From Candidatus Methylomirabilia bacterium (lineage in GTDB: Bacteria > Methylomirabilota > Methylomirabilia > Rokubacteriales > CSP1-6): DNA of 64,000 bases. The DNA is taken from assembly GCA_041478145.1 (NCBI GenBank), contig JBGOVO010000001.1, positions 5,702 through 69,701 on the forward strand, given 5' to 3'. Numbering within the stretch: the first letter of the stretch is position 1; each line of letters opens with the position of its first letter. The notes under the pieces are model-generated. The model did no database searches. It saw only the letters and a list, made by a program, of their open reading frames with translations, and was not told where the DNA came from. Both the position numbers and the translations under genes were made by a program. This document shows positions 23,334 through 40,510 of this stretch, piece after piece.

Positions 23334-23825
23334 ATGGTGGGTATCATGCTTAGTCGAATCGTTCTGGCAGGCGGCCTGCTGCTTGCGTCTCTCGTCGTCC
23401 TCGCCGTAGAGGCGAGGCCGATCGCGGCCCAGTCCAACGACCCCCTGACGAAGAACACGAAGGATCCGAAGATCATCGCCACCCAGATCAAGAGCGCCCT
23501 GCCTCTCGCGGAGCGCGGGTTCGCGATGCTCAACACCTCGATGGACCCCCAGCCGACGGAGAGCGCGGTGGAGCTGCTCCTGACGTCGTATCGCTATCTG
23601 CGCGCCGCCTACCAGAGCAACGACCTGATCCTCTCCACCTCGAAGGTGCCGGACCCGCTGCTGGAGCTCGAGAACAAGCAGATCATGTACGTCCGGCAGC
23701 GGCTGCTCGACTGCACCGGCAACCGCCAGTACCTCACCGATACGGGTCGAATCCGTACCACGTGTATCGAAGGCCTGGCCCTGGGCCTCCGCACGCTGCG
23801 GACTCTCGCCGTCACGCTGCCATGA
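23334..23825 (+). CDS. hypothetical secreted/periplasmic protein (signal peptide, no recognisable domain)
   Basis: N-terminal hydrophobic signal MLSRIVLAGGLLLASLVVLAVEA. 163 aa. It is translationally coupled to both neighbours. Confidence 0.45.
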   Translation: MVGIMLSRIVLAGGLLLASLVVLAVEARPIAAQSNDPLTKNTKDPKIIATQIKSALPLAERGFAMLNTSMDPQPTESAVELLLTSYRYLRAAYQSNDLILSTSKVPDPLLELENKQIMYVRQRLLDCTGNRQYLTDTGRIRTTCIEGLALGLRTLRTLAVTLP

Positions 23826-24981: not shown

Positions 24982-26907
24982 ATGTGCGGCATCAGTGGAG
25001 TGGTGTACACGGATCGCTCGCATCCGGTGGACCGCGAGCTGGTGCGGCGGCTGACGAGCACCCTGGCCCATCGGGGCCCGGATTCCGACGGCTTCCTGTT
25101 CGACGAGGGGGCGGCGCTGGGGCACCGCCGGCTGAGCATCATCGACCTCTCGACCGGTGATCAGCCGATCTACAACGAGGACCGCAGCAAGGCGGTGGTC
25201 TTCAACGGCGAGATCTACAACTTCCGCGCGCTGCGGGCCGAGCTCGAGGGGTGCGGCCACCGGTTCGAGACCGCCTCGGACACGGAAGTGATCCTCCACG
25301 CCTGGGAGGAGTACGGCGACGGCTTCGTCTCGCGCCTGCGTGGGATGTTCGCGTTCGCGGTCTGGGACCTCCGTCATCGGCGGCTTCTGCTCGCCCGGGA
25401 CCGGGTCGGAAAGAAACCGCTCTACTACGCTCACGACGCCGAGCGGCTTCTCTTCGGGTCCGAGCTCAAGGCCATCGTTGCCGACCCGTCGGTCAAGCGG
25501 GCCATCAGCCTGGAGGCGGTGGACGAGTATCTGACGTTCGGGGCCGTCCCCGCGCCCCGCACGATCTATCAGAGCGTGCAGCAGCTGCCCCCCGCGCACT
25601 ACCTGGTCTGGGAGGCCGGACGCGTTCGCCTCGTCGAATACTGGGACCTGACCTACTCCCGGGTTCCGGCGCGGTCGGAAGCCGCGTGGCTCGAGGAGTT
25701 CGAGTCCATCTTCGAGGAGGCCGTGCGGCTGCGACTGATCAGCGACGTGCCCCTCGGCGCCTTCCTGAGCGGCGGGGTGGACTCGACCGTGGTGGTGGCG
25801 GCCATGGCACAGGCGTCCGACCGTCCCGTGGCCACCACCACGGTGACTTTCGATGAGCGCGCGTTCAACGAGGCTCCCCATGCTCGCGCCGTGGCCCGAA
25901 GCCTCGGGACCGATCATCAGGAGGTCGTGGTCGCGCCGCGCGCGGTGGACATCCTTCCCACCATTGCCTGGCATCTGGACGAGCCGTTCGCCGACTCCTC
26001 GGCGCTCCCGACCTACTATGTCGCCCGGGCCGCGCGCCAACGGGTAACGGTGGCCCTCTCCGGCGACGGCGGCGACGAGATCTTCGCCGGCTACGAGTGG
26101 CGCTACGGGCTCAACCTGCTCGAGGACCGGATCCGGCGGCGGATTCCCGGTGGGCTCCGGCGGGGGATCTTCGGGCCGCTGTCCGCGGTGTGGCCGAAGG
26201 CCGACCGGCTTCCGCGTCCGCTCCGCTGGAAATACCTTCTCCGGAACGTGAGCCTCGAGCCGGAGACCGCCTACTTCCAGGACCTGAGCCGGTTCACGCC
26301 GGCCGACAAGCGCGATCTGCTCACGCCCGACTTCCGGCGGAGCCTGCATGGCCACGATCCCTTCCAGGGCTTCCGGCGCCACTTCGACCGCGTCCGGGGG
26401 CTCGACCACCTCAACCGGATCCTCTACGTGGACCTCAAGACGTGGCTGGCGAACGACATCCTCGTCAAGGTGGACCGGATGGCGATGGCGAGCTCCCTCG
26501 AGGTGCGCTCCCCGCTGCTCGACCATCACATCATCGAGTTCGCAGCGACGCTGCCGCCCGACCTGAAGTTCCGCAACGGGAAGGCCAAGTACCTCCTCAA
26601 GCGCTATGCGGAGCGCCGGGCGCCGGCCTCCGTCATCCACCGGCCCAAGCAGGGTTTCTCGATTCCGCTCGCCGCCTGGCTCCGCACGGACCTGCGGCCG
26701 ATGGCCGAGGATCTGCTGCTCTCCGAGCGGGCGCTGGGCCGCGGCTACTTCCAGCCGGAGGTTGTGCGCGGCCTGTGGGGCCGCCACCAGGAGAGGACGC
26801 GGGACCACGCCCACCAGATGTGGGCCCTCATGATGCTCGAGCTGTGGCACCGGCTCTTCGTGGACCAGACGCCCGGCGCGGCGCCAGCGGCTCCGGAGCC
26901 CCGCTGA
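24982..26907 (+). CDS. asparagine synthetase-family amidotransferase (exosortase A-associated type)
   Basis: MCGISGVVY...HRGPDSDG...FNGEIYNF and SGGVDST, GDGGDEIFAGYEWRY motifs. The internal ATG at 24982 was chosen because the upstream part of the track ORF overlaps the preceding GT. Confidence 0.85.
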   Translation: MCGISGVVYTDRSHPVDRELVRRLTSTLAHRGPDSDGFLFDEGAALGHRRLSIIDLSTGDQPIYNEDRSKAVVFNGEIYNFRALRAELEGCGHRFETASDTEVILHAWEEYGDGFVSRLRGMFAFAVWDLRHRRLLLARDRVGKKPLYYAHDAERLLFGSELKAIVADPSVKRAISLEAVDEYLTFGAVPAPRTIYQSVQQLPPAHYLVWEAGRVRLVEYWDLTYSRVPARSEAAWLEEFESIFEEAVRLRLISDVPLGAFLSGGVDSTVVVAAMAQASDRPVATTTVTFDERAFNEAPHARAVARSLGTDHQEVVVAPRAVDILPTIAWHLDEPFADSSALPTYYVARAARQRVTVALSGDGGDEIFAGYEWRYGLNLLEDRIRRRIPGGLRRGIFGPLSAVWPKADRLPRPLRWKYLLRNVSLEPETAYFQDLSRFTPADKRDLLTPDFRRSLHGHDPFQGFRRHFDRVRGLDHLNRILYVDLKTWLANDILVKVDRMAMASSLEVRSPLLDHHIIEFAATLPPDLKFRNGKAKYLLKRYAERRAPASVIHRPKQGFSIPLAAWLRTDLRPMAEDLLLSERALGRGYFQPEVVRGLWGRHQERTRDHAHQMWALMMLELWHRLFVDQTPGAAPAAPEPR

Positions 26908-26915: not shown

Positions 26916-27947
26916 ATGGCCGTCAAGATCCGTCCGGGCGACGTCGAGGCAGACCGCGCGGCCGCCATCTCGCTGCTCTCGCGCTATGTCAACCCGGCCT
27001 ACGACGGCGCCCGGTTCGACTGGCTCTACCGCGCGAATCCGGCCGGCCGCGGCCGCCTCTGGATGGCCGTGGACGGCTCCACCGGCGACCTCATCGGCAC
27101 CGCGGGCGCCTTCCCGCGCTGGCTGTCCACCGGCGGGCGCGACCTGCGCGGCTGGCTCCTCGCCGACTTCTGTATCGCGGAAGGCCACCGCGCGCTCGGT
27201 CCTGCCCTGCAACTCCAGCGAGCCTGCCTCGAGGATCTGGCCGCCGACGGCGCGGCCTTCTGGTACGACTTCCCCAGCCGGACCATGGAGGCCGTCTATC
27301 GGCGCCTCGGCGTGGCTCCGCGCGTTCAGGTCACACGGCGCGTCCGGTTGCTGCGGTCCTATGACGTGCTCCGGCAGCGCCTCGGCTCCCCGGTCCTGGC
27401 CCGAGCCCTGGGGCTCGCCGTCGACCTCGCCCTCGCCTGGGGCACACGGGCGCCTGCGTCACTGCCGGTGACGCGCCACGAGGGCCCCTGCGGCGGGGAG
27501 TTCACCGACCTTGCCCGCACTGCCGGGCCCGGGTACGGTGCCGTCGTGCGGCGGCGGGCGGAGTACCTCAATTGGCGCTATCTCGACAACCCGATCCGCC
27601 GGCATGACATCCTCGCCGCGCGCCGGGACGGCCGTCTGCTCGGCTACGCCGCGGTTACCATGGACGGGGACAGCGCATCCATCGTGGACCTGTTCGGGAT
27701 TCCAGACCCGCGCCTCATCGAGGGGCTGACCCGGGGCACCCTGGGCTGGCTCCGCCGGCGCGGCGCCGCCAGCGTGACGCTCTGGCTGCTTCCGCCCCAG
27801 GCCTGGGTCCCGGGGCTCCACCGCCTCGGGTTTCGGCCGCGCGAGACCGCGCCCGTGATGCTGGAGGCCGCGGCCTCGCCCGCCGGAGCGCCACGACTCG
27901 ACGATCCCGCCCTCTGGCTCCTCACGCATGGCGACGGGGACAGCTGA
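26916..27947 (+). CDS. GNAT-like acyl/acetyltransferase, two-lobed (hypothetical)
   Basis: About 343 aa with two GNAT-like halves. First gene of a translationally coupled run that continues into the carrier-protein module. Confidence 0.45.
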   Translation: MAVKIRPGDVEADRAAAISLLSRYVNPAYDGARFDWLYRANPAGRGRLWMAVDGSTGDLIGTAGAFPRWLSTGGRDLRGWLLADFCIAEGHRALGPALQLQRACLEDLAADGAAFWYDFPSRTMEAVYRRLGVAPRVQVTRRVRLLRSYDVLRQRLGSPVLARALGLAVDLALAWGTRAPASLPVTRHEGPCGGEFTDLARTAGPGYGAVVRRRAEYLNWRYLDNPIRRHDILAARRDGRLLGYAAVTMDGDSASIVDLFGIPDPRLIEGLTRGTLGWLRRRGAASVTLWLLPPQAWVPGLHRLGFRPRETAPVMLEAAASPAGAPRLDDPALWLLTHGDGDS

Positions 27948-27962
27948 GCCCAGGAGACCTCC

Positions 27963-28226
27963 ATGACCCTTCACCCGATCACCGTGCGGATCCGAGAATT
28001 CCTGATCGAGCACTTCCCGTCCGCGCGTAAGCACCCGCTGACCGAGGACGATCACCTGCTCGCCAACGGGATCGTCGACTCCCTCGGGGTCCTCGATCTG
28101 GTCGCGTATCTCGAGCGGGAATTCAACATCGCGGTCGGGGACGACGATCTCGTGCCCGAGCACTTCGAATCCCTTCGCCGCTTGACCGCATTCGTTCAAG
28201 ATAGGATGAGCGTCGGCTCTCGCTGA
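27963..28226 (+). CDS. acyl/peptidyl carrier protein
   Basis: 87 aa with a phosphopantetheine-attachment motif GIVDSLGVLDLVAYLE (DSL). An AGGAGA RBS lies upstream. Confidence 0.75.
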   Translation: MTLHPITVRIREFLIEHFPSARKHPLTEDDHLLANGIVDSLGVLDLVAYLEREFNIAVGDDDLVPEHFESLRRLTAFVQDRMSVGSR

Positions 28227-28238
28227 CGGGAGGAGGAT

Positions 28239-29804
28239 ATGGATTTCCTGATCCACCACATGCTCCAGGCGAGCGCGCGCCGCCATTCCGCGAAGGAAGC
28301 GCTCGTCCATGCCGAGGAGCGCCTGGCCTACGATGACGTGGCGCGGCGGGTCTCCGGCCTCGCCACCGGCCTCCGCGAGGCCGGGCTCGAGCGAGGCGAC
28401 CGCATCGGCATCTATCTGGACGCGTCGGTGCCGCAGGTGCTCTCCATCTTCGGCGTCTCCCAGGCGGGCGGGGTCTACGTGCCCGTGAACGGGCTGCTCT
28501 TCCCCGATCAGGTGGCCTTCATCGCTCGGGACTGCGGGATGAAGGGGCTCATCACCACCCCCGAGAAACTGGCCCCGCTCGCGCAGGCCTTGAAAGAGGT
28601 CCCGTCTCTCGAGTTCGTCGTCCTCGTGGGCGGCTTCGGCCTCGTGGACAGCCCGCTCGCCGTCCACGATTTCGAGGCCTGCTGCGCGCTCCCGCCGCCC
28701 TCGCCGTGGCGCGAGCAGGCCATCGAGAAGGATCTGGCCGCCATCCTGTACACGTCGGGCTCCACCGGGAAGCCGAAGGGCGTCATGCTGAGCCACGCGC
28801 AGGTCATGGCCGGCAGCTCCATCGTGTCCGCCTATCTCCGGATCACCGAGGCGGATCGGATCCTCGCGGTGCTGCCCTTCAGCTTCGACGCCGGCATGAA
28901 CCAGCTCATGACGGCCTTCCAGCAAGGGGCGACGCTCATCCTGATCAACTTCGTCTTCGCCCGTGAGGTCGTCCGGACGCTGCTCCGCGAGCGGGTCACG
29001 GGCCTCGCCGGCGTGCCCACGTTCTGGAGCCTCCTCGCGCAGCCCACCTCGGGCCTGCAGAAGCAGCCGCTGCCCGACCTGCGCTACCTCACCAACACGG
29101 GCGGAGCGATGCCCCAGACCGTGCTGGCGACGCTTCGGTCCCTCCTGCCCTCCACCGACATCTTTCTCATGTACGGTCTCACGGAGGCCTTTCGCTCGAC
29201 GTATCTCCCGCCCGAGGAGCTCGCCTACCGGCCCACGTCCATCGGCAAGGCGATCCCGGACACCGAGATCCTGGTGATCAACGAGCACGGCGGCCTCTGC
29301 AAGCCGGGAGAGGTCGGCGAGCTGGTCCACCGGGGCCCCACCGTGTCCCTCGGGTATTGGGGTCATCCGGAGCTGACGGCCAAGGTGCTCCGGCCGAACC
29401 CGCTGCTGCCGCCCGAGCTCGCCGACGTGGTCTGCTACTCGGGCGACTACGTGAAGATGGACGAGGAGGGGTATCTGTACTTCGTCGGGCGGCGCGACGC
29501 AATGATCAAGTCGTCCGGCTTCCGTATCAGCCCGACCGAGGTCGAGGAAGTCCTGTTCCGCAGCGGCCGGCTCAAGGGCGCCGCCGTCATCGGGCTGCCC
29601 GACGAGGTGCTCGGGCAATCGATCAAGGCGCTCGTGGTGGTCCGGGACGGCGAGCCGCTGGACCCGGCCCAGCTGCGCGAGTTCTGCGCCGCCAACATGC
29701 CGCGCCACATGGTGCCCAAGGTCATCGAGGTGCTGGACGACCTGCCGAAGACCCCGAGCGGCAAGGTGGACTATCCTGCCCTTCGCCGGCGTGAAGGGCT
29801 CTAG
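28239..29804 (+). CDS. acyl-CoA/AMP-forming ligase (adenylation enzyme), exosortase A-associated type
   Basis: LYTSGSTGKPKGVMLSH adenylation box, plus YGLTE and GDYVKMDEEGYLYFVGRRDAMIKSSGFRISPTEVE motifs. A strong RBS GGGAGGAGG lies upstream. Confidence 0.85.
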   Translation: MDFLIHHMLQASARRHSAKEALVHAEERLAYDDVARRVSGLATGLREAGLERGDRIGIYLDASVPQVLSIFGVSQAGGVYVPVNGLLFPDQVAFIARDCGMKGLITTPEKLAPLAQALKEVPSLEFVVLVGGFGLVDSPLAVHDFEACCALPPPSPWREQAIEKDLAAILYTSGSTGKPKGVMLSHAQVMAGSSIVSAYLRITEADRILAVLPFSFDAGMNQLMTAFQQGATLILINFVFAREVVRTLLRERVTGLAGVPTFWSLLAQPTSGLQKQPLPDLRYLTNTGGAMPQTVLATLRSLLPSTDIFLMYGLTEAFRSTYLPPEELAYRPTSIGKAIPDTEILVINEHGGLCKPGEVGELVHRGPTVSLGYWGHPELTAKVLRPNPLLPPELADVVCYSGDYVKMDEEGYLYFVGRRDAMIKSSGFRISPTEVEEVLFRSGRLKGAAVIGLPDEVLGQSIKALVVVRDGEPLDPAQLREFCAANMPRHMVPKVIEVLDDLPKTPSGKVDYPALRRREGL

Positions 29805-31128
29805 AGGCGTCGCGGTGGGTGCCGTGGCCGCCCTGGTCGACCGCAACTTCCCCGGGTCGGGGCGCGAGCTCCTCGTGGGCGGCTGCCCGGTCACCGAGCT
29901 CGCCGGGCGCCACGGCACCCCGCTCTACGTCTACGACACCGCCACCATCGATCGGCAGCTCGCGCGGCTGCGCGGCAGTCTGCCGCCCGGATTCTCGGTC
30001 TACTACTCCGTCAAGGCCAACCCGAGCCGCGCGCTGCTGCGCCATTTCCTCGCGCGGGGATGCGGGCTCGAGGTGGCCTCCGCGGGAGAGCTCGGCGGGG
30101 CGCTGGCCGCCGGCTGCCCGGCCGACCGCATCTTCTTCGCCGGCCCCGGCAAGACGGAGGCCGAGCTCGAGGAGGCCGTGGTCCAGGGCGTCGGCGAGAT
30201 CCACGTGGAGTCGCTCACCGAGGCCCGGCGGATCGGCGCTATCGCGCGTCGGCACGGCACCCGCGCCCGCGCAGCCCTCCGGGTGAACCCCGGTGCGGAG
30301 GCCCAGGGCGGCGCCATGCGCATGGGTGGCAAGCCCGCGCCCTTCGGCGTGGACGAAGAGCGGATCGAGGAAGCGCTGGATCTGCTGGAAGGCGATGCCG
30401 CCATCGACCTGCAAGGCCTGCATCTCTTCACGGGCACGCAGATCCTCGACCATGCCATCGTGGTCGCCCAGTACCGACACGGTCTCCAGCTCGCCCGGCG
30501 GGTGGCGGCCCGCCTGGGCCGACCACTCCACACGCTCGATTTCGGCGGAGGCTTCGGGATCCCGTACTTCGCCAACGAGACCGAGCTCGACATGGACAAG
30601 CTTCGAGAGGAGCTGCGCGCGCTCCTCGCCGCCGTCGAGGGCGACCCGCTCTTCCACGGCACCCGGTTCGTGGTCGAGCCCGGGCGCTACCTCGTCGGGG
30701 AGGCCGGGATCTTCGTCACGCGGATCACCGACATCAAGGTCTCGCGGGGCAAGACATTCCTGATCACGGACGGCGGGATGAACAATCATCTCGCCGCGTC
30801 GGGGAACCTCGGCCAGGTCATCAAGCGCAACTATCCGATCGCCATCGCCGGTCGCCTCGCTGAGGATCAGGCCGCTGCCGTGGATGTCGTGGGCCCTCTC
30901 TGCACCCCCCTCGATACCCTTGCGCGCGATGTCAGTCTCCCGCCCGCGGACATCGGCGACCTGGTCGTGATCTTCCAGTCCGGCGCATACGGTCTCACCG
31001 CGAGCCCGGTGATGTTCCTCGGCCATCCGGTGCCCGCGGAGGTGCTCGTCACCGACGGCCGGTCCGAGGTCGTTCGCGCCCGCACGCCGTCGTCCGGGAC
31101 GCTTGCGTCTGACAGGATGGGAACGTGA
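29791..31128 (+). CDS. PLP-dependent decarboxylase, Orn/DAP/Arg decarboxylase family 2 (diaminopimelate decarboxylase-like), exosortase A-associated type
   Basis: TPLYVYD...YSVKANP motif with the PLP lysine, and an alanine-racemase-like TIM barrel plus C-terminal beta domain. Start uncertain (GTG 29791, overlaps the ligase stop). Confidence 0.8.
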   Translation: MKGSRGVAVGAVAALVDRNFPGSGRELLVGGCPVTELAGRHGTPLYVYDTATIDRQLARLRGSLPPGFSVYYSVKANPSRALLRHFLARGCGLEVASAGELGGALAAGCPADRIFFAGPGKTEAELEEAVVQGVGEIHVESLTEARRIGAIARRHGTRARAALRVNPGAEAQGGAMRMGGKPAPFGVDEERIEEALDLLEGDAAIDLQGLHLFTGTQILDHAIVVAQYRHGLQLARRVAARLGRPLHTLDFGGGFGIPYFANETELDMDKLREELRALLAAVEGDPLFHGTRFVVEPGRYLVGEAGIFVTRITDIKVSRGKTFLITDGGMNNHLAASGNLGQVIKRNYPIAIAGRLAEDQAAAVDVVGPLCTPLDTLARDVSLPPADIGDLVVIFQSGAYGLTASPVMFLGHPVPAEVLVTDGRSEVVRARTPSSGTLASDRMGT

Positions 31129-32201
31129 CCTGGACGCTCCACTCGGCAGCCGAGGCCTTCGAGGGGCACCGGGAGACCTGGGATGCGCTGAACCGGGCGA
31201 ACGGGAATCACGTCCTGCTGGACTCGGGGTTCGTCGCCATCCTTCTCCGTCATTTCGGTCACGCGGGGGTGAAGCTCGCCGTGTCCGAGCATCCGGAACG
31301 GCCGGGCCTGGCCCTGCTCGAAAGGACCCGCGGCGGCTTCTGGCGGACATTTCAGCCCTCGCAGGCGCCGCTCGGCCTGATTCTGTTCGGCTCCCGCCAG
31401 GACATCTTCGGCCAGATCCAGCGGCTCATTCGCGCCCTGCCCGGGTACGCGCTGGGCCTGGCCGTGCTGCAACAGGATCCGGACTTCACCTGCTTCGGAG
31501 ACCTCGCTCCGAGGCCAGATCTGGAAACCCTCGACTACATCCGGACGGCCCGGCTGACCCTGACCGGCTCCTTCGATGACTACTGGAGCTCTCGCGACCG
31601 GCGCTGGTCTCGCGACCTCGCGCGGCAGCGGCGCCGCCTGGTCGAACGCGGGGCCCGCCTCGAGCTCCAAATCACCCGTGAGCCGGAGGAGGTCGGCGCC
31701 GCCATCCGCGACTACGGGGTCCTGGAGGCTGCGGGCTGGAAGGCGAAGCACGGTACGGCCATCGCGCCCGAGAACGCCCAGGGGCAGTTCTACCGGGAGG
31801 CCCTCGAGTACTTCTGCGCCCGAAATGAAGGCGTCATCTACCGGCTGCGCCTCGAAGGGCAGACGGTGGCCGCCAACCTGTCCATCGAGCGCGACACGAT
31901 GCTGATCGTCCTCAAGATCACCTACGACGAGAGCATCCCGACCCTGTCGCCGGGACATTTCCTCGAGGCGGAGATGCTGCGCGCGGTGTTCGCGGAGGGG
32001 CGCATCAAGGTCGAGGAGTACTACGGCCCCTTCAAGGACTGGCAGGCCCGCTGGACCGACGAGATCCGGACCATGCACCACCTGAACTTCTACCGGTCCG
32101 CGGCGGCGGCGAGGGTTCGTCAGCTCCTGAAGACGGCCGCCGGCGGCGTGCGTGATCTCCGGCGCCGGATCGCCGGGCGAGGAGCCAGGGAGCAGCCGTG
32201 A
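31125..32201 (+). CDS. CelD/BioF2-like GNAT-fold acyltransferase (FemAB-related)
   Basis: About 358 aa. GTG start overlaps the upstream TGA. C-terminal GNAT-like region (LEAAGWKAKHGTAIAPENAQGQFYRE). Confidence 0.5.
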   Translation: MTWTLHSAAEAFEGHRETWDALNRANGNHVLLDSGFVAILLRHFGHAGVKLAVSEHPERPGLALLERTRGGFWRTFQPSQAPLGLILFGSRQDIFGQIQRLIRALPGYALGLAVLQQDPDFTCFGDLAPRPDLETLDYIRTARLTLTGSFDDYWSSRDRRWSRDLARQRRRLVERGARLELQITREPEEVGAAIRDYGVLEAAGWKAKHGTAIAPENAQGQFYREALEYFCARNEGVIYRLRLEGQTVAANLSIERDTMLIVLKITYDESIPTLSPGHFLEAEMLRAVFAEGRIKVEEYYGPFKDWQARWTDEIRTMHHLNFYRSAAAARVRQLLKTAAGGVRDLRRRIAGRGAREQP

Positions 32202-33472
32202 CGCAGCGGGTGCTCATGGTCGCCTTCCACTACCCACCCTGCGTCGGGAGCAGCGGCGTCCATCGCACGCTCAAGTTCTCCCGCTACCTGCTGGATCACG
32301 CCTGGCAGCCCGTCGTCCTGACCGCGAACCCTCGCGCCTATGCCCAGCGCGCCGAGCACCAGCTCGCCGAGATACCCGCGGCGGTGGCGGTCGCGCGCGC
32401 ATTCGCACTGGACTCGCGCCGCCACCTGGCGATCCGCGGCTCCAGCCTGCGGCTCACCGCCCTGCCGGATGCCTGGTCGAGCTGGTGGCTCGGAGCGATT
32501 CCGGCCGGGCTCCGCCTGATCCGCCGGTACCGTCCCGCCGCACTCTGGTCCACGTATCCGATCGCCACTGCGCATCTGATCGGCTTGACGCTCCACCGGC
32601 TCACCCGGATCCCCTGGGTCGCCGACTTCCGCGACTCGATGACCGAGGAGTTCTCCCCTTCGGATCCGGCGACCCGGCGAGCGTTTCTCTGGATCGAGCG
32701 GCACACCGTCCGCGCCGCGGCCCGGCTGGTCTTCACCGCGCCGTCGACGAAGCGCATGTACCTCGACCGCTACCCCGGCCTACCCGCGTCGCGCTGCCTC
32801 GTCATCTCGAACGGCTACGACGAGACCGACTTCGCCGGTCTCCTGCCCTCGACGCCTCCGACACCGGCCCCGCTCCGGCTCATCCACGCCGGCGTGATCT
32901 ACGAGTTCGAGCGGGACCCGCGGCCCTTCTTCCGCGCCCTTGCGCGGCTTCGCCGGGAGGGGCGGGTCGGCGCGCAGAGCCTCCGCGTAGAGCTGAGGGG
33001 ATCGGGGACAGACGCTTACTGCGCCCGCCTCATCCGCGAGCTCGGGATCGACGACTTCGTGCACGTCCTCCCCGCGCTCCCGTACCACGAGAGCCTCGAG
33101 GACTGCATGACGGCCAGCGCCCTTCTCCTCCTCCAGGGGGAGAGCTGCAATCACCAGATCCCGGCGAAGGCGTACGAGTATCTCCGCCTCGGCAAGCCGA
33201 TCCTCGCGTTGACGTCGGCCACCGGGGACACCGCCGGGCTCCTCACCGAATGCGGTGGCAGCACGATCGAGGATCTGGCGGACGAAGAGGCCATCTACCG
33301 GATCCTGCCGGGGTTTCTCGACTCGCTGCGCGCTGGCACCCACGCTCTGCCCGAGCCCGCGCGGGCCGGGCGCTATGCGCGGCACAGCCAAGCGCGGGAC
33401 CTGGCCGCCTGTCTGTCCGAGGTTGCCGCGGCGCGGAGGGACGGCGCCGCCGTCGGAGTCGGCGATGGGTGA
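32198..33472 (+). CDS. glycosyltransferase (GT-B fold, GT4-like)
   Basis: VLMVAFHYPPCVGSSGVHRTLKFSRYLLDHAWQPVVLT N-terminus and a C-terminal GT-B half. A GTG start overlaps the upstream stop. Confidence 0.6.
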   Translation: MTQRVLMVAFHYPPCVGSSGVHRTLKFSRYLLDHAWQPVVLTANPRAYAQRAEHQLAEIPAAVAVARAFALDSRRHLAIRGSSLRLTALPDAWSSWWLGAIPAGLRLIRRYRPAALWSTYPIATAHLIGLTLHRLTRIPWVADFRDSMTEEFSPSDPATRRAFLWIERHTVRAAARLVFTAPSTKRMYLDRYPGLPASRCLVISNGYDETDFAGLLPSTPPTPAPLRLIHAGVIYEFERDPRPFFRALARLRREGRVGAQSLRVELRGSGTDAYCARLIRELGIDDFVHVLPALPYHESLEDCMTASALLLLQGESCNHQIPAKAYEYLRLGKPILALTSATGDTAGLLTECGGSTIEDLADEEAIYRILPGFLDSLRAGTHALPEPARAGRYARHSQARDLAACLSEVAAARRDGAAVGVGDG

Positions 33473-33479: not shown

Positions 33480-34664
33480 TCAGGCCGTGCGGCCAGCTCC
33501 GGCGACCCGGCGGATCCCCTCGACGATGAGCTCCAGATCGCGTCGCCTGAGGTTCTGATGGACCGGCAGCATCACCAGGTTGTCGTAGAGGAAGTCGGCC
33601 CGCGGGAACTGCTCCCGCGAGATATCGGGTGGGCGGACGCCGTCCCAGGCCACGGCGGGAATACCCAATCGGCGGAGGTCGAGGTGCGCCTTCGGGCGTC
33701 CCTCGAAGAGCATCGGGTAGACCCACGGGCAGACGCCCTCCTCCAGCCGCGGAAACAGCGCCCGCGCTCCCATGACGTCCTGCGTGTGCTTGGACACGAA
33801 CTGGTAGTGCTCTCTCCGCCGCTGTCGGATCGCCTCGACGTCGGCGTGAGCGAGCAGCCAGCGGGAAGGGCGGCTCATCGGCAGGTTCAGCCGGCTCCGC
33901 TCGAACCAGCGGCACTCCTCGGCAGCGCCTGCGACCGCCGGCCGGGCCCCGCCCCGTCGGAGGAGCGCCTTGGGCCGCTGCAGCCATTTGTACACCGCGT
34001 TGACCTTGGTCCACTCCGTCCAGGTCATCGTACGATCGCACAGGTCCTTCGCGACCTGGAGCGTGTGCAGCGCGGTTTCCCGCTGCCACCTCACGGCGAC
34101 GGGACGCTCCGGCACGTTGACGATCAGCGTCGCGCCGTCATCGACGGGCAAGAGCTTCGGCCAGCTGAAGACCGCCAGCTCGCCGACCCGTCCGAGCGTC
34201 GGTTCGCCGCCCGCCCTCGGCAGTACGTGCGCGCAATCCTCGAGGAGCACGAGCCGGTGCCGGTTACAGAGCTCGCGGAGCGCGTCGAGCCGCTGCGGGA
34301 ATCCGAAGTAGTGGACGCACATCACCGCCCGCGTCCTCGGCTGTATCTTCCGCTCGAGCGCCCCGACGTCCACGCTGCAGTCGTCGCGCACGTCGTGGAA
34401 GTCCACCGTCGCGCCGAGCGCCATCACCGGCTTGACGGCGGCGATGCAGAGATACGCGGGGACGAGCACCCGGTCACCCGCCCCGATGCCCAGCGCCGCG
34501 AGCCCGTGGTAGATGGCATTCCTCGCCAGCAGGAACTGATACGAGCGGGACGTCCCGCCTTCGGGACGAGGCTCCTTCCGGCCGGCCCAGCGCACGAACT
34601 CCAGCGACGGATACTGCCGGATCGGCATGACGAAGGCGTCGTTCCCCGTATCCATCTCGCCCAT
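33480..34664 (-). CDS. DegT/DnrJ/EryC1/StrS-family PLP-dependent sugar aminotransferase
   Basis: ALAALGIGAGDRVLVPAYLCIAAVKPVMALGATVDFHDV and VMCVHYFGFPQ motifs of the AAT-I sugar aminotransferases. Convergent with the upstream GT, only 7 bp apart. Confidence 0.8.
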   Translation of the reverse strand: MGEMDTGNDAFVMPIRQYPSLEFVRWAGRKEPRPEGGTSRSYQFLLARNAIYHGLAALGIGAGDRVLVPAYLCIAAVKPVMALGATVDFHDVRDDCSVDVGALERKIQPRTRAVMCVHYFGFPQRLDALRELCNRHRLVLLEDCAHVLPRAGGEPTLGRVGELAVFSWPKLLPVDDGATLIVNVPERPVAVRWQRETALHTLQVAKDLCDRTMTWTEWTKVNAVYKWLQRPKALLRRGGARPAVAGAAEECRWFERSRLNLPMSRPSRWLLAHADVEAIRQRRREHYQFVSKHTQDVMGARALFPRLEEGVCPWVYPMLFEGRPKAHLDLRRLGIPAVAWDGVRPPDISREQFPRADFLYDNLVMLPVHQNLRRRDLELIVEGIRRVAGAGRTA

Positions 34665-34689: not shown

Positions 34690-35751
34690 ATGGCGATCGA
34701 CCTCGTCACTGACGAAGACGCGCTGCTGCGTCTCGAGAACGACTGGGAGTCGCTCCTCGCCGACTCCGCGCACCCGTCCATCTTCATGTCGTTCGACTAT
34801 CAGTACGCGGGCTGGAAGACCTTTCATCGTCCGCACTCGGAGCCGTTCGTCGTCTCGGTGCGTGACGCCCGGGGCGGGCTGATCGGGCTGGTGCCGTTCC
34901 GGAGCTCTCGCGACCGCGGCTCGTGGGTGCGCTGGCGGAGCCTCACCTACCTCGCCTCTTTCGAGATCGACCGCCCCGCTCCACTCATCCGCCTGGGATC
35001 CGAAGCCGAGTTCTGGGCGGCTCTCCAGCGTTTCCTCGCGGACGCGGGCGGCGGCTGGGACGTCCTCCGGATGCCGGAGCTGCCCGCGGACCAGGTGGCG
35101 GCCGCCCTGGCGGCGTTCAGCTCGCCGCGGCAGCGCTTCACGGCCTCGCCCGGCCCCTCCGCCATCGGCGTCGACCTGCGGCCGTCCTGGGACGAGTTCA
35201 TCGGGCAGCACCGGAACCTCCGGAAGCACGTCCGGGGGGTCGAGCGGAAGGTGCCCGGGCTCGACGTCTGGCTCTACGACGATCCCAGCCGGATTCTCGA
35301 GGGCTTCGCCCTCTTCACGGAGGTCGAGAGCCGGAGCTGGAAGGCGGGCAAGGTCGGCGTCTCGAAGGACGCCCGTCATACGGAGTTCTACCGTGATCTT
35401 CTCCAGCGCCTGGTCCGCCGCAAGCGGGTCGCCGTCCGGATCCTGGCCGCGGGAGACCAGCCGGTCGCGGGCGACATCACCTACACGCTCGGGCGGCGCG
35501 TGTTCTTCCATCACGGCACGTACGACCAGGCCTACGCCGACTGGTCCCCCGGTACCTTCCTCACCTGCCGCCTCTTCCAGGACTACATGGACTGCGGCTA
35601 CGACTCGGGGGACTTCCTCTGCGGCTTCGCGGACTACATGCGACCGTGGTGCACCATCGAATGGCACACCACGAACGTGATGATCACCCGGGAGTCCGGT
35701 CTCATGCGCCTCAGCCGGCTCGCCCAGCGCCTCAAGGCGCCCCGGTCATGA
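34690..35751 (+). CDS. CelD/BioF2-like GNAT-fold acyltransferase (second paralog)
   Basis: Same architecture as the 31125 gene (FMSFDYQYAGWKTF...). Internal ATG at 34690. Divergent from the DegT gene across about 25 bp. Confidence 0.5.
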   Translation: MAIDLVTDEDALLRLENDWESLLADSAHPSIFMSFDYQYAGWKTFHRPHSEPFVVSVRDARGGLIGLVPFRSSRDRGSWVRWRSLTYLASFEIDRPAPLIRLGSEAEFWAALQRFLADAGGGWDVLRMPELPADQVAAALAAFSSPRQRFTASPGPSAIGVDLRPSWDEFIGQHRNLRKHVRGVERKVPGLDVWLYDDPSRILEGFALFTEVESRSWKAGKVGVSKDARHTEFYRDLLQRLVRRKRVAVRILAAGDQPVAGDITYTLGRRVFFHHGTYDQAYADWSPGTFLTCRLFQDYMDCGYDSGDFLCGFADYMRPWCTIEWHTTNVMITRESGLMRLSRLAQRLKAPRS

Positions 35752-36794
35752 CGGAGCCCACGGCACTCTCACTCTCGGGCGTCTCGGTGGTCATTCCGAC
35801 CCACAATCGGGCCGCCCTCGTCACCCGCGCGGTCGCTTCGGCGCTCGCCCAGTGCCGCGAGGGCGACGAGGTGATCGTCGTGGACGACGATTCCCAAGAC
35901 GAGACCGAGGCGCGCCTCGCGCCCTATCGCGACCGGATCGTGTATCGGCGGGTCGCTCATGGTGGCGCCGGAAGAGCCCGAAATGTCGGGGTCGAACTCG
36001 CCAGGAACCCGCTCGTCGCCTTCCTGGACTCCGATGACGAATGGGTGCCCGGCAAGCTGGACATCCAGCGCGCGCTCCTGGCTGCACGGCCCGACGTTCT
36101 CTTCTGCTTCACCGATCAGATGTATCGCCAGCCATCCGGGCAGGAGTTCCACGGCGTCCTGCGCTACCTGTGCGGGGACGACTGGATGCGCGAGGACTGT
36201 GCGCCCGCGTTCCCCTTGTCGTCGATCGTGCGGCTGCCCGAAGGGCAGCCGGAGATCTCCGTCTACATCGGCGATGTCTATCCCAAGCAGATGGAAAAGG
36301 AGTTGCCTTCGGTGGTCACGCTAGTCTACCGTCGGGAGGCCGCGGGCGAATCGGTCCGGTTCCCCGAGGACCTCGAGACCCGGGAGGACTGGGAGTTTGT
36401 CGGGCGTCTGGCCCGGCAAGGCCTCGCCGCCTATCTGGACTACGAGGCGGCGATCGTGCACCAGCACAGCGGGCCACAGCTCACCAAGCTCGACAACGCG
36501 CTGCTCGTCCCGGCTCGCCTGACGCTGCTGCAGCGCGTGTGGGGGTCCGACGAAAAGTTCCTGAGAGAGCACGGCCAGCGCTATCGGCAGGTGCTCGACC
36601 AGCTACGACTGCAGCGGGCCCGGGATCTCCTGGGCTTTGGCCGCGCTGGAGAGGCACGGGAGGAACTCAGGCAGATTCGCCAAACACCGATCGCCCTTCG
36701 GCTGTTGAGTCATATTCCCGGGATCTTTACGCGCGAGCTGGTTCGGGCGCGACGGTATCTCCGGAGTAGGCTGCGGGCCAGGGACGGGCGCTGA
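35748..36794 (+). CDS. glycosyltransferase family 2
   Basis: VSVVIPTHNRAALVTRAVASALAQ...VIVVDDDSQDET...LDSDDEW: GT-A fold with DxD-type motifs. Confidence 0.75.
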   Translation: MTEPTALSLSGVSVVIPTHNRAALVTRAVASALAQCREGDEVIVVDDDSQDETEARLAPYRDRIVYRRVAHGGAGRARNVGVELARNPLVAFLDSDDEWVPGKLDIQRALLAARPDVLFCFTDQMYRQPSGQEFHGVLRYLCGDDWMREDCAPAFPLSSIVRLPEGQPEISVYIGDVYPKQMEKELPSVVTLVYRREAAGESVRFPEDLETREDWEFVGRLARQGLAAYLDYEAAIVHQHSGPQLTKLDNALLVPARLTLLQRVWGSDEKFLREHGQRYRQVLDQLRLQRARDLLGFGRAGEAREELRQIRQTPIALRLLSHIPGIFTRELVRARRYLRSRLRARDGR

Positions 36795-36833: not shown

Positions 36834-38210
36834 ATGCGCGTCACAATGATCGGCCATGCCGCGTTGCTGTGCGAGACGGAAGACCTCCGCATTCTGATGG
36901 ACCCGTGGATCGCGGGCCCGGCCAACTTTAGGAGCTGGTGGCATGTCCCCGAGGTGTGTCATGAGGTCGCGCGACTGCCGCGCGTCGACTACATTTACAT
37001 CTCCCATCTTCACGGAGACCACTTTCACGAGGCCACGCTGGCTCAGCTCACACAACGGCCGACGGTGCTGGTGCCCCGCCTATACCACGACCGGATGGTA
37101 ACCAAACTTCGCCGACTTGGGTTCACGAGTATCCGCGAGCTCCCCCACGGAGCGGAAGTAGGGCTGAGCGCCAGGACGCGCGTCTGCTGCACGCAGATGG
37201 GCAACGACAGCGTGATCGCGGTGGCAGACTCGTCGGCGGCCATGCTGAACGCCAACGATGCTTTGCAGGGATCGCGCCCAGACATCAAGCTGCCGCTCTT
37301 GCGCACGCTCAGTCAGCGCTATCGGTTCGATATCGCGTTTCTGGCTTTCGGGACCGCGGGGGCTTTTCCGAAGTGCTACCGCATCGAGGACATGTCGCCG
37401 AAGAGCATGGATCCCTGGCGGAAGGAACGGGCCATGCTGAGCAACTTCGTGACGGGAGTCAAGACGATCAATCCCAAGAGCGTCGTGCCCTTCGCCGGGG
37501 GCTTTGCTCTTTTGGCCGATCGCGTGATGTGGATGAACGAAGCCAAGACGACACCGGCGGACGCCCTGGCCGCCCTCGCCGAGGCGAAACTCTCCACGAC
37601 CGGCTTCGAGATGAACCCGGGCGATATCTGGGACAGCCGGGAGGGTCTTCTGCAGGTCCATCCGGCAGTGGACTGGACTCGGCGTCTGGATGTGATCCGG
37701 GAAATGCAGAGCACGCGGGCGGTCGAGGTGGCCCGAATCGAGGCCGATGATCGGCAGGGACCGGCGGACCTCTACGAAATCTTCCAGCGTCGGCTCAGTC
37801 AGAATGTACGCCGGTTCCCTCTTCTGCGGCGGCGGATGGACTGCTCGGTGCTCTTCGTTGTCGAGGGTGAGCCGGGAGGGCTGTGGGAAGTCGACCTCCG
37901 GAGACCATCCGGCTGGTTCCGGAACGGTGATTCAGGAGATTGGTCCCTGCGCGTGACCATTCCGGCGGGGCTCCTCGCCAGCGTGCTGAGTGACCCGGAC
38001 GGCTGGGAAACGCTGGGCATCGCCTATAAGCTCGACCTCTACATCCGGAAGGGGGCGCGCGCCAAGGAGGGGCTCCTCGATCGCTTGATCAATACACCCT
38101 CGCCGTTCTGGTTTCTTAAGGCGGTGCTGGCTCCTCGCTTCGCCGAGTTCGTGATTCACCGTCGGCTCGAGTTCTCGCAGATCCTCCGCGAGAAGATTTC
38201 GGGAACGTGA
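36834..38210 (+). CDS. MBL-fold metallo-hydrolase (function unknown)
   Basis: HxHxDH zinc-binding motif (YISHLHGDHFH). 458 aa. Local GC is noticeably lower than the flanking genes. Confidence 0.6.
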   Translation: MRVTMIGHAALLCETEDLRILMDPWIAGPANFRSWWHVPEVCHEVARLPRVDYIYISHLHGDHFHEATLAQLTQRPTVLVPRLYHDRMVTKLRRLGFTSIRELPHGAEVGLSARTRVCCTQMGNDSVIAVADSSAAMLNANDALQGSRPDIKLPLLRTLSQRYRFDIAFLAFGTAGAFPKCYRIEDMSPKSMDPWRKERAMLSNFVTGVKTINPKSVVPFAGGFALLADRVMWMNEAKTTPADALAALAEAKLSTTGFEMNPGDIWDSREGLLQVHPAVDWTRRLDVIREMQSTRAVEVARIEADDRQGPADLYEIFQRRLSQNVRRFPLLRRRMDCSVLFVVEGEPGGLWEVDLRRPSGWFRNGDSGDWSLRVTIPAGLLASVLSDPDGWETLGIAYKLDLYIRKGARAKEGLLDRLINTPSPFWFLKAVLAPRFAEFVIHRRLEFSQILREKISGT

Positions 38211-38247
38211 CGCGGAGCCACCGCGCGTCTTGAGGACATCGGATGCC

Positions 38248-38264
38248 CCTGTTCCGGGAACAGG
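38248..38264. promoter_or_regulatory. perfect 17-bp palindrome CCTGTTCC-G-GGAACAGG after the MBL-hydrolase gene
   Basis: Lies 38 nt after stop codon 38210, within the 158-bp gap before the secreted Cys-rich gene. It could be a terminator stem or an operator. Confidence 0.3.
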
Positions 38265-38368
38265 TACACTGCTTGTCTGGCCAGTCCCTGTATACTCGCC
38301 ATGCGTGTTAACCAATTTGGATGCGGCGGGGAGCGTCCTTTCCGTTGAGCCGGTCGAGGAGGTATTCA

Positions 38369-39445
38369 ATGCGTTGGGGGTTCCTTTTTCTGACAGTCTT
38401 GGTCGTCTCGGTCGTTTTCATGGGGGCAAGTGGCTCGACGCAGCGACTCCCGCTGGGTGACTGCTCGTCCGAACCTGGTCTCGCCGGGCGCTCGGACATC
38501 GTGTTCTGCGAGCCATGGGAGTCGCCGACGTGGTGGCGGCAAGGGTATTTACGCGACGGGCGGGTGGATCGTCCCTTGCCGGCGAGACCGGAAGAGCTCG
38601 TCGACGCCACGCTCGAGGGCAATGGGTGCGTTTCCGGGAAGTGTCTCCGTCTCACGATGAAGCAGTTCGAGACAACGGCCCTGAACCTTTACTGGCCCCT
38701 GAAGAACGCCGGGCTCCGGCCCGAGCAGCTCTATTTGCGGTACTACCTCAAGTTGGGGCCCACTTGGGATAACGAGAACTGCCGCGAGGTGAACGGCAAG
38801 CCGGTGCCAGAGGATGCGGGAGGAAAATTCCCCGGCCTCGCCGATATCCGCAACGACGGCGACCAGGCGGGTCAATGCGGTTATGGCGGAGAGCCCGGTG
38901 ACGGCATCGACTGCTGGTCCCACCGGGCCTACTTCCGCGACTGCTACAGCGGCAGCACCGGGAACCAGATCTGTCGGACGGTTCCGGGAGCGATCACTCG
39001 CTACGGGGGGTACGTCTATTTCGCGGGTCAGGAGGGCTTCACGGGCAACCCGGCCATCTGGGACAGCGATCCCTGGGGCCAGGCGTTTGGACGGGGCGGC
39101 TCGTGCGCCACCGATCCCACGGATCTCTTCTGCCCCGTCGGCCGCAACGCGGGCGTGCTCGTTCGGGAGCGCTGGTACGCGCTTGAGCAGTTCATCAAGA
39201 TGAACACGCCGGGCAAAGCCGACGGCGTCATCCGCGGGTGGGTGGACGGGGTCCTGGCCTATGAAAAGACCAACATGATTTTTCGGCTGCCCGGCCACCA
39301 CGGGCTGCACATCCGGCAGCTCTGGCTCGACGTCTACAAGGGCGGCGTCTATGGAGGATGCCGCGACGGCGAGGTGTGGCTGGACCAGCTCGTGCTCGCC
39401 ACTAACGCGCCGATCGGGCCGATCAAGCGGCCCGTCTCGCGCTGA
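38369..39445 (+). CDS. secreted cysteine-rich protein, possible beta-jelly-roll polysaccharide lyase/hydrolase-like (hypothetical)
   Basis: Signal peptide MRWGFLFLTVLVVSVVFMGASG, preceded by a GGAGG RBS 8 nt upstream of ATG 38369. Many Cys residues, and a C-terminal WYALEQFIKMNTPGKADGVIRGWVDG pattern reminiscent of lectin/lyase jelly rolls. Confidence 0.45.
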   Translation: MRWGFLFLTVLVVSVVFMGASGSTQRLPLGDCSSEPGLAGRSDIVFCEPWESPTWWRQGYLRDGRVDRPLPARPEELVDATLEGNGCVSGKCLRLTMKQFETTALNLYWPLKNAGLRPEQLYLRYYLKLGPTWDNENCREVNGKPVPEDAGGKFPGLADIRNDGDQAGQCGYGGEPGDGIDCWSHRAYFRDCYSGSTGNQICRTVPGAITRYGGYVYFAGQEGFTGNPAIWDSDPWGQAFGRGGSCATDPTDLFCPVGRNAGVLVRERWYALEQFIKMNTPGKADGVIRGWVDGVLAYEKTNMIFRLPGHHGLHIRQLWLDVYKGGVYGGCRDGEVWLDQLVLATNAPIGPIKRPVSR

Positions 39446-39451
39446 GGCTGC

Positions 39452-40498: not shown

Positions 40499-40510
40499 GC
40501 CCGGAGCGTA

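Follow-up and report, generated by a model that had tools for sequence, protein, structure and literature searches.

Introduction

In the BtrJ/I/K, CtaD/E/F and FlvN/L/O systems, glutamate or aspartate is tethered to a carrier protein via its side-chain carboxyl and is decarboxylated on the carrier to a 4-aminobutyrate (GABA) or beta-alanine unit (PMC11350588, PMC7857480). This study concerns a six-gene run at positions 26916-33472 of a 64,000-nucleotide stretch of DNA from a Candidatus Methylomirabilia bacterium (GenBank assembly GCA_041478145.1, contig JBGOVO010000001.1, positions 5,702 to 69,701 of the forward strand). The whole stretch is called the window below, and all coordinates refer to it. 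The run encodes a tandem-GNAT N-acyltransferase, a stand-alone carrier protein, an adenylate-forming ligase, a pyridoxal phosphate (PLP)-dependent decarboxylase, a Fem-fold acyltransferase and a GT4-like glycosyltransferase, and it lies in a large exopolysaccharide (EPS) locus. We show that BtrK is the closest solved relative of the decarboxylase, and on balance we favour a reading in which the module builds an omega-aminoacyl group (GABA or beta-alanine type) on a carrier protein and uses it to N-acylate an amino sugar of the EPS.

The closest described systems each share part of this arrangement. The BtrJ/BtrI/BtrK cassette, which forms the 4-amino-2-hydroxybutyrate (AHBA) side chain of butirosin in Niallia circulans, resembles the window in its stand-alone 87-aa carrier, ATP-dependent ligase and fold-type-III PLP decarboxylase acting on a tethered substrate. 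BtrJ is an ATP-grasp enzyme, whereas loading in the window falls to an ANL adenylating enzyme; moreover, the window module belongs to an EPS locus and has a tandem GNAT as its candidate transferase. The acyl group of butirosin is hydroxylated, protected by a gamma-glutamyl group and passed to the aminoglycoside by BtrH; equivalents of BtrH, BtrG, BtrO and BtrV were not identified in the window. The VinN/L/O (vicenistatin), FlvN/L/O (fluvirucin) and CtaD/E/F (closthioamide) cassettes also combine an ANL adenylation enzyme, a stand-alone carrier and a PLP decarboxylase, which together form a beta-aminoacyl carrier, and the window ligase resembles VinN in having an amino-binding Asp and, within the beta13-beta14 loop, a basic residue. 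However, the products of these cassettes prime polyketide synthase (PKS) or thiotemplate assembly lines, and no such assembly line is present in the window.

The ligase and decarboxylase also fall in or near two curated families associated with exosortase A (XrtA), TIGR03098 and TIGR03099. The two genes are adjacent here, 10 nt apart, the ligase passing its family cutoff and the decarboxylase falling just under. In canonical proteobacterial loci of this kind, the pair adjoins two genes for alpha/beta hydrolases (TIGR03100 and TIGR03101), neither of which was identified in the window. Both families are 'hypothetical equivalogs', named 'acyl-CoA ligase' (AMP-forming) and 'PLP decarboxylase, exosortase A system-associated', for which we know of no function or substrate in ca. 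20 years of annotation. An initial reading of the window made without database searches (the sequence-only reading) had already stated that the substrate of the pair was not known; likewise, the searchable literature contained no functional study of the pair or its carrier, nor any link of the pair to BtrK-type chemistry or of BtrK to exosortase.

Two types of envelope decoration are also relevant. In the Wbp/Vim system belonging to the T9SS (type IX secretion system) of P. gingivalis as well as T. forsythia, the AsnB-like WbpS amidates a uronic-acid amino sugar, the CE4 enzyme VimE de-N-acetylates it, VimA, which matches TIGR03019, N-aminoacylates the linking sugar to give a 2-N-aminoacyl uronamide, and a glycosyltransferase inserts it, the free amine accepting secreted proteins from a sortase-like enzyme (PMC7468200). 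According to a speculation in that study, an acceptor of this type is made by the VimA-like proteins found in XrtA loci (PMC7468200). Wbp/Vim is the closest parallel in logic, with AsnB-like, CE4, TIGR03019 and Fem-fold genes all present in the window. It differs in that Vim adds Ser or Gly and has no carrier, ligase or decarboxylase, whereas the putative acyl donor in the window is a decarboxylated aminoacyl carrier protein. In DltABCD (D-alanylation of teichoic acid) and AlmEFG (glycine on Vibrio lipid A), an adenylating enzyme charges a stand-alone carrier and the amino acid is passed to a cell-envelope polymer, as proposed here, but both systems are without a decarboxylation step.

Results

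The decarboxylase is closest to BtrK

The fold-type-III PLP decarboxylase (437 aa; 29815-31128, plus strand) had BtrK as its best match among solved structures (7ru7 and 2j66; 295 bits, E 1e-86, 38% identical), which is deposited as 'L-glutamyl-[BtrI acyl-carrier protein] decarboxylase'. The best structure of a diaminopimelate (DAP) decarboxylase reached 178 bits, 117 bits below BtrK, and this was also the highest score among the DAP, ornithine and arginine decarboxylases. The motifs DGGMNNHLAAS, GPLCTPLD and GAYGLTASPVMFLGHPVP are common to the window enzyme and BtrK, and can be generalised as DGGM(N/H)xH(L)AAS, GPLCTPxD and GAYGL(T/S)xSPxxFLGHPxPxE. The PLP-binding Lys67 (codon 30013-30015) was invariant in the aligned homologues.

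The positions equivalent to these motifs were compared in 11 DAP decarboxylases (one solved structure and ten LysA-like proteins from genomes). All 11 had xxIRP, C-E-[ST]-(G)-D and a conserved NYN-containing stretch, whereas the window enzyme has HLAAS in place of IRP and CTP in place of CE[ST]. In the structure of M. tuberculosis LysA, the distal carboxylate and amine of DAP are presumably held by the IRP Arg and the CES Glu. The score against the lysA model (TIGR01048) was 290.5 bits, ca. 7 under the cutoff of 297.9. The public annotation, and the usual name in metagenomes, is 'diaminopimelate decarboxylase'; LysA was rejected as an identity on these scores together with the replacement of both DAP-type motifs. 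The sequence-only reading had described a PLP enzyme of the DAP-decarboxylase family; by the comparisons above, it is not a DAP decarboxylase itself. TIGR03099 was the best family by 176 bits, at a score of 466.4 bits that lies 12 below the cutoff of 478.45; all of the ten nearest 50%-cluster representatives tested were under this cutoff as well.

An exhaustive search with the decarboxylase over 1.84 billion cluster representatives gave 2102 matches at E<=1e-30. Among the best 150 of these 2102, all of which scored at least 266 bits, CE[ST] was found in none and C-T-[PST] in 126. The same 150 representatives (cited by their P numbers) included natural fusions of an AMP-ligase with a decarboxylase (P0244, 992 aa; P0319, 968 aa) and of a decarboxylase with a PP-binding carrier domain (P0266 and P0305). 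In P0244, the ligase part was 47% identical to the window ligase, with the specificity code DANGTTMRSK as compared to DANATTMRSK in the window. These fusions argue for a single tethered substrate shared by the ligase, the carrier and the decarboxylase.

Other fusions were found in the BtrK-like clade, with the pantoate-beta-alanine ligase PanC (P0367), with sulfotransferases (P0289 and P0388) and with an acyl-CoA dehydrogenase (P0323). The PanC fusion hints that some members of the clade perhaps make beta-alanine from aspartate.

The ligase has an amino-binding Asp and an invariant pocket Arg

The ligase (521 aa; 28239-29804, plus strand) scored 624.7 bits against TIGR03098 over its full length, above the cutoff of 592.35. 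With the decarboxylase at the edge of TIGR03099, the earlier assignment of the pair to the exosortase A-associated families thus holds. The best single-domain relative among solved structures was VinN (3wvn; 197.6 bits, low identity), with the acyl-CoA synthetases FadD5 and feruloyl-CoA synthetase nearly level (ca. 192 bits). LgrA was considered as a specially close relative and rejected, because its 287 bits are the sum of two adenylation (A) domains, of which the better reached 164.7. Against general families, the ligase scored 355 bits with PRK06187 vs 256 bits with AA-adenyl-dom.

The specificity-code residues of the ligase are DANATTMRSK, and their positions agreed between the HMMER alignment to the LgrA A domains and motif mapping. 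D217 is the equivalent of the amino-group-binding D235 of GrsA, and M311, R319 and S320 correspond to positions 322, 330 and 331, R319 being in the beta13-beta14 loop. At each position, the code residue was the majority residue, found in 59-61 of 62 aligned ligases; the exceptions were the distant ligases of two loci (L005 and L016), and the more distant ligase of the Prosthecobacter trio (L005) retains D, T, M, R and K of the code. VinN uses D230 to bind the amino group of 3-methylaspartate, and its K330/R331 are located in the same beta13-beta14 loop (PMC11253843). The combination of an amino-binding Asp with an invariant pocket Arg points to a substrate with a free amine and a free carboxylate, and so to an acidic amino acid activated at its other carboxyl. 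The ligase is proposed to load such an acidic amino acid onto the carrier protein.

Considering the two enzymes together, it is quite likely that the decarboxylase acts on a carrier-tethered amino acid. The suggestion of the sequence-only reading that an amino acid is loaded on the carrier and decarboxylated there has gained concrete support from the kinship with BtrK, the missing DAP motifs, the fusions, and the Asp and Arg of the ligase.

The carrier protein and the tandem GNAT

The carrier protein (87 aa; 27963-28226, plus strand) scored 27.3 bits against PP-binding, above the Pfam cutoff of 20.8, and has its phosphopantetheine Ser40 (codon 28080-28082) within GIVDSLG, so that the carrier with a DSL phosphopantetheine site noted earlier between the GNAT and the ligase is confirmed. 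Its nearest solved relatives were peptidyl carrier proteins of the stand-alone kind (2my5, 52 bits; PltL; PigG; and, weakly, VinL), and it resembles these more than fatty-acid acyl carrier proteins or DltC. With the DltC model it scored 20.2 bits vs a cutoff of 68. DltA was absent from the 25 best of the 107 NCBIfam families matched by the ligase, and neither DltB (an MBOAT protein), DltD nor an AlmG-type transferase was identified among the scanned window gene calls. Membership of the Dlt system was rejected on the score of the carrier and the lack of DltB and DltD in the scans. The module had been called Dlt-like; this label stands as a loose analogy, and BtrJ/I/K, FlvN/L/O, CtaD/E/F and VinN/L/O are better precedents.

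The GNAT (343 aa; 26916-27947, plus strand) showed weak Pfam matches to Acetyltransf_9/Acetyltransf_1. No sequence relative was found among solved structures, and no NCBIfam family matched at E<=0.01, the exosortase-associated acyltransferase family included. Its predicted structure, with a predicted local distance difference test (pLDDT) score of 92, was a tandem GNAT fold, and the closest structures to the model were those of Eis-type enzymes, N-myristoyltransferase (NMT), a glucosamine N-acetyltransferase and MshD. These matches are N-acyltransferases, all of which move an acyl group from a pantetheine thioester onto an amine. The tandem GNAT is the acyltransferase that accompanies the carrier protein. 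On its fold and synteny, it is proposed to pass the aminoacyl group from the carrier thioester to an acceptor amine; alternatively, it may N-acylate the tethered amine.

We also considered the GNAT as a PEP-CTERM/exosortase-associated N-acyl amino acid synthase; this identity was rejected, as no NCBIfam match was obtained and the fold class is different. In several related loci, an extra protein of 275-323 aa is encoded between the carrier and the ligase (L017, 6575-7546; L101, 6201-7028; L023; L029; L057; L058; L097). It had no Pfam match, was weakly similar to the window GNAT (29-33% identity) and is not present in the window.

Gene order and conservation of the module

All eight genes named by the sequence-only reading were found at or near the positions it gave, and their family assignments hold. 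In addition to the four genes already described, the run contains the Fem-fold acyltransferase (31125-32201, plus strand) and the GT4-like glycosyltransferase (32198-33472, plus strand), and is followed by the convergent DegT gene and second CelD paralogue that had been reported to flank it (33480-34664, minus strand, and 34690-35751, plus strand). The six genes are packed tightly on a single strand. They had been described as joined by ATGA/GTGA overlaps, which is correct for two of the five junctions: true GTGA overlaps are found between the decarboxylase and Acetyltransf_6 genes and between the Acetyltransf_6 and glycosyltransferase genes. The other three junctions are gaps of 10-15 nt, namely 15 nt with a GGAGA motif (GNAT to carrier), 12 nt with a GGAGGAGG motif (carrier to ligase) and 10 nt (ligase to decarboxylase). 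The last value is given for a decarboxylase start at GTG 29815, which is the choice of the gene caller and fits the N-termini of homologues; the alternative start at GTG 29791 would give a 14-nt overlap with the ligase, not a 4-nt one. A scan for promoters and terminators in the 23-40 kb region gave nothing that exceeded the shuffled background.

To define the conserved unit, related metagenome and genome loci with a decarboxylase >55% identical to that of the window were compared (loci are cited by their L numbers); 41 had enough upstream sequence and 35 had enough downstream sequence. Upstream, on the same strand and within 4.3 kb of the decarboxylase, the ligase was found in 40 of 41 loci, the carrier in at least 36 and the GNAT in at least 30. 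Downstream, the GT4-like gene was found in 25 of 35 loci, DegT in 12 (10 of them on the plus strand) and Acetyltransf_6 in 10. These counts suggest that the conserved unit is GNAT, carrier, ligase and decarboxylase, usually with a GT4-like gene. The six genes do not, as had been assumed, form one unit: beyond the core of GNAT, carrier, ligase and decarboxylase, the Fem-fold acyltransferase and DegT occur in ca. 30% of loci and are an optional pair, usually travelling together.

The same block was obtained in loci reached independently through homologues of the GNAT (L099 and L100) and of the Acetyltransf_6 protein (L101). A frequent order in these loci began with AsnB and CE4, continued with GNAT, carrier, ligase and decarboxylase, and then had GT4, DegT, Acetyltransf_6 and a Wzy_C/O-antigen-ligase-like gene. 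AsnB and CE4 genes were directly 5' of the GNAT-carrier-ligase-decarboxylase block in L018, L057, L099 and L100; the counterpart in the window lies at 7523-10368. The closest genome in a single-protein genome scan was a Candidatus Deferrimicrobiaceae metagenome-assembled genome (MAG; L003), with identical gene order and a decarboxylase 83% identical, and further close homologues carry the labels Rokuibacteriota or Methylomirabilota. Relatives from soil metagenomes were abundant, with at least 536 encoded there among the 600 matches listed, and the 80 best were all at least 59% identical to the window protein.

Two loci had other surroundings. In a Prosthecobacter MAG (L005, 8490-11472), a ligase-decarboxylase-carrier trio and an amidase gene are ca. 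1.3 kb apart, and the neighbourhood contains no recognised EPS genes. In a Cellvibrionaceae MAG (L004, 9342-13052), a hexapeptide acyltransferase gene lies just 5' of the decarboxylase, which is followed by the ligase, and no recognised EPS genes were found; an 81-aa open reading frame (ORF) after this ligase had no Pfam match and may be a carrier. From these neighbourhoods, the cassette is evidently mobile between pathway types.

Accessory and neighbouring genes

The Acetyltransf_6 protein of the run (358 aa, CelD/VimA-like; 31125-32201) had a predicted structure with two GNAT lobes, as in the Fem fold, at a pLDDT of 94, and its structural matches were FemX, FemA, an aminoacyl-tRNA-dependent peptide synthase and the MprF synthase domain. 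The label 'FemAB/CelD-type' given to it earlier was thus right at the level of the fold, which is predicted with high confidence. It differs from the aminoacyl-tRNA-dependent FemX/FemA/FemB, MprF and Sbb17 in sequence (ca. 10-12% identity) and in the occurrence of its gene in ca. 30% of the related loci. The second paralogue (353 aa; 34690-35751, plus strand; Pfam Acetyltransf_6, 71.9 bits) was ca. 20% identical to the first over 149 residues (pairwise BLASTP, E 2.6e-7), and its gene overlaps the following GT2 gene (35748-36794) by ATGA. By BLASTP, neither paralogue was detectably similar to the TIGR03019 protein of the window.

The GT4-like protein (424 aa; 32198-33472) had a weak Glyco_transf_4 match (29 bits vs a cutoff of 28.5) and no sequence-similar solved structure; its orthologues in L016, L018, L099 and L101 gave clear Glyco_transf_4 and Glyco_trans_4_4 matches. 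The DegT-family sugar aminotransferase (394 aa; 33480-34664, minus strand) matched DegT_DnrJ_EryC1 over residues 50-168 (101.6 bits), and its C-terminal half is divergent. Its nearest solved relative was the Kdo8N aminotransferase 5k8b, and K170 aligns with the Lys of the 'SFDSVK' motif of that enzyme, presumably the PLP-binding Lys. The gene is inverted in the lineage of the window and co-directional in most other lineages. Directly 5' of the GNAT, an AsnB-like amidotransferase (TIGR03108/WbpS-like; 25000-26907, plus strand) scored 757 bits against TIGR03108, below the cutoff of 816.9, and an AsnB-like gene flanks the module in many related loci.

The surrounding EPS locus

The G+C content of the window is 65-72%. 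An array of plus-strand genes spans positions 3-42730 almost throughout, and the module is part of it. NCBIfam and Pfam scans of the window proteins indicated a large EPS locus of the XrtA/PEP-CTERM type, with the marker families TIGR03006, TIGR03019, TIGR03097, TIGR03087, TIGR03088, TIGR04063 and TIGR03007 all above their cutoffs. Among the plus-strand genes are those for an XrtA-system polysaccharide deacetylase (3290-4150; TIGR03006), a FemAB-family protein (5248-6273; TIGR03019), an O-antigen-ligase-like protein (12227-13603; TIGR03097) and the glycosyltransferases stp1, stp2 and stp3 (NCBIfam scan). Three AsnB-like amidotransferases resembling TIGR03108 were found in the window by the NCBIfam scan, including one at 7523-9367 (plus strand) that is followed by a CE4 polysaccharide deacetylase (9364-10368, plus strand; NCBIfam match). 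NCBIfam/Pfam matches also identified GlmS in the EPS locus, and WecB, two nucleoside diphosphate (NDP)-sugar dehydrogenases of the UDP-ManNAc type and a Wzx flippase in its plus-strand array. At the right end of the locus are a sigma-54 response regulator, a chain-length determinant (TIGR03007, above cutoff) and an XrtA-system ATPase-like protein that scored 250.9 bits against TIGR03015, below the cutoff of 324.5.

Directly 3' of the module (36834-42730, plus strand) are four genes, which encode an MBL-fold protein of 458 aa, a PL14-like polysaccharide lyase, a Kelch-like beta-propeller and a 739-aa protein of the heparinase II/III-like type. Genes for the last two recur next to the decarboxylase in L017, L023, L024, L029 and L030, which suggests that EPS trimming enzymes are linked to the module. 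A second adenylate-forming enzyme is encoded in the same array (17956-19341, plus strand), between a GT4 gene and an NDP-sugar dehydrogenase gene; it is of the PaaK/F390-synthetase/DVU_1553 type (NF045666, 119.9 bits), and its homologue adjoins the AsnB/CE4 pair in L086. A 163-aa protein (23334-23825, plus strand) has an N-terminal hydrophobic stretch that may be a signal peptide, and it matched no family, its gene being kept between Wzx and stp2 in related loci.

A minus-strand cassette (43575-56040), separate from the plus-strand array, resembles a modified CDP-sugar pathway. It includes a glucose-1-phosphate cytidylyltransferase, an NDP-hexose C-methyltransferase (Methyltransf_13/14), an RmlC-like epimerase, a short-chain dehydrogenase/reductase (SDR), an aminotransferase of the PRK06209 type (720 bits), a DUF4910/M28-like protein, a PIG-L deacetylase, a pyruvyl transferase of the CsaB type, a GT2 enzyme and a sulfatase-like homologue of phosphoglycerol transferases. 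A small GGDEF-domain protein (149 aa; 56491-56940, plus strand) is encoded upstream of the sigma-54 regulator, the Pfam match being on the identical gene of L102. The final ORF of the window (63228-63998, plus strand) runs off its end and is the N-terminus (CoA_binding_3) of a 452-aa priming sugar transferase (L102, 10882-12240). In over 20 related loci, the divergent neighbour just 5' of the GNAT-carrier-ligase-decarboxylase block is a homologue of this transferase; in the window, the distance is 35 kb. Between -6.6 kb and +74 kb, chain-length/tyrosine-kinase and priming-transferase genes occur as two sets, placed at opposite ends of the locus.

Discussion

A proposed pathway and its alternatives

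The following pathway is proposed for the module. Firstly, on the homology and residues of the ligase, this enzyme would adenylate a dicarboxylic amino acid, most likely aspartate or glutamate, and thioesterify it via the side-chain carboxyl to the phosphopantetheine of the carrier. Secondly, in the best supported step, the decarboxylase would remove the free alpha-carboxyl on the carrier, yielding beta-alanyl- or 4-aminobutyryl-S-carrier. Thirdly, as the fold and synteny of the Eis/NMT/MshD-like tandem GNAT suggest, this enzyme would pass the acyl group to a sugar precursor at a free amine, probably one that a CE4 deacetylase has exposed on a hexosamine or hexosaminuronic residue. Finally, the GT4-like enzyme would place the modified sugar into the polymer. 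DegT and the Fem-fold acyltransferases, where present, may be an add-on that creates and aminoacylates a further amine, with aminoacyl-tRNA as the donor by analogy of fold. Transfer onto the EPS or an amino sugar is inferred from the gene context. Taken as a whole, a pathway of this kind is somewhat more probable than not.

Several points weigh against this pathway. The decarboxylase is 12 bits short of the TIGR03099 cutoff. The roughly equal similarity of the ligase to acyl-CoA synthetases and to adenylation domains of non-ribosomal peptide synthetases (NRPS) means that a non-amino acyl substrate is possible, and to our knowledge DANATTMRSK matches no code of a characterised enzyme, so that aspartate, glutamate, aminoadipate or DAP are all candidates. 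The closest structural relatives of the GNAT use CoA thioesters, and the GNAT might simply N-acetylate. The acceptor and the order of the steps are drawn from neighbouring genes only. The searchable literature yielded no biochemical or genetic evidence for any member of TIGR03098/TIGR03099, and we know of no EPS of this lineage reported to carry GABA or beta-alanine, though no exhaustive search for one was made.

The best surviving alternative is a lipid or N-acyl-amine pathway, in which a fatty-acyl-AMP ligase loads the carrier, the GNAT makes an N-acyl amino acid and the decarboxylase yields an amine, the product being a lipid anchor or surfactant. The NCBIfam matches of the ligase that rank next after TIGR03098 are indeed long-chain fatty-acid-CoA ligase subfamilies, and N-myristoyltransferase is among the top structural matches of the GNAT. 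However, an amino-binding Asp and a conserved pocket Arg would be odd in a fatty-acid pocket, the GNAT matched no NCBIfam family at the threshold given above, that of the exosortase-associated acyltransferases among them, and the decarboxylase groups with the carrier-dependent BtrK, fusions with carrier domains being known. We consider this alternative improbable.

Still less probable is a decarboxylase that works on a free substrate, a LysA-like or ornithine/lysine-type enzyme making lysine or cadaverine/putrescine, which the AsnB-like enzymes would amide-link to uronic acids while the ligase and carrier serve an unrelated acylation. The public annotation, a lysA score only 7 bits below the cutoff and the several AsnB-like amidotransferases flanking the module are in its favour. 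It conflicts with the replacement of both IRP and CE[ST], which are invariant in the 11 DAP decarboxylases, with the lead of BtrK over any DAP decarboxylase, and with the ligase gene, which is adjacent in 40 of 41 loci, as well as the physical fusions to ligase or carrier. That the trio makes a diffusible metabolite with a beta- or gamma-amino acid in it, as the butirosin, fluvirucin and closthioamide pathways do, and lies by chance inside an EPS locus is very unlikely too: although all characterised relatives of the cassette serve secondary metabolism and the Prosthecobacter trio stands beside an amidase gene with no recognised EPS genes around, scans of the window revealed neither PKS genes nor NRPS condensation domains nor aminoglycoside genes, and in dozens of loci the block is on the same strand as, and adjacent to, GT4, Wzy_C/O-antigen-ligase-like, AsnB, CE4 and priming-transferase genes.

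Possible link to exosortase and implications

A search of the window and of the flanks available on the same metagenome contigs, which extend ca. 6.6 kb to the left (L104) and ca. 10 kb to the right (L102), ca. 80 kb in total, revealed neither an exosortase gene nor a PEP-CTERM tail. Either XrtA lies elsewhere in the genome or, in this lineage, the link between XrtA and its marker families is not strict. An extension of the omega-aminoacyl pathway can be imagined, in which an amine-terminated beta-alanyl or 4-aminobutyryl spacer on a de-N-acetylated hexosaminuronic EPS residue would be the acceptor nucleophile for exosortase-type ligation of PEP-CTERM proteins. Partly because no exosortase gene lies within ca. 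80 kb, we regard this extension as speculative and rather unlikely. By analogy, and just as tentatively, such an acceptor would correspond, in the EPS, to the Fem/pentaglycine-sortase system and to the linking sugar of the T9SS Wbp/Vim pathway, with a thiotemplated, decarboxylated amino acid as linker.

The ligase and decarboxylase are known as a pair of curated families and the cassette is known from antibiotic pathways; its occurrence in an EPS locus, where a tandem GNAT would serve as the transferase, would be a novel version of it. If the decarboxylase is a BtrK-type enzyme acting on a carrier-tethered amino acid, both current annotations are misleading. If the proposed pathway is correct, a load-then-decarboxylate cassette known so far only from antibiotic pathways would be widely used by environmental bacteria for the decoration of EPS. 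The resulting free primary amine would change the charge, adhesion and flocculation of the EPS; it would also be the type of nucleophile needed by a sortase-like enzyme, and the attachment target of exosortase would thus become testable.

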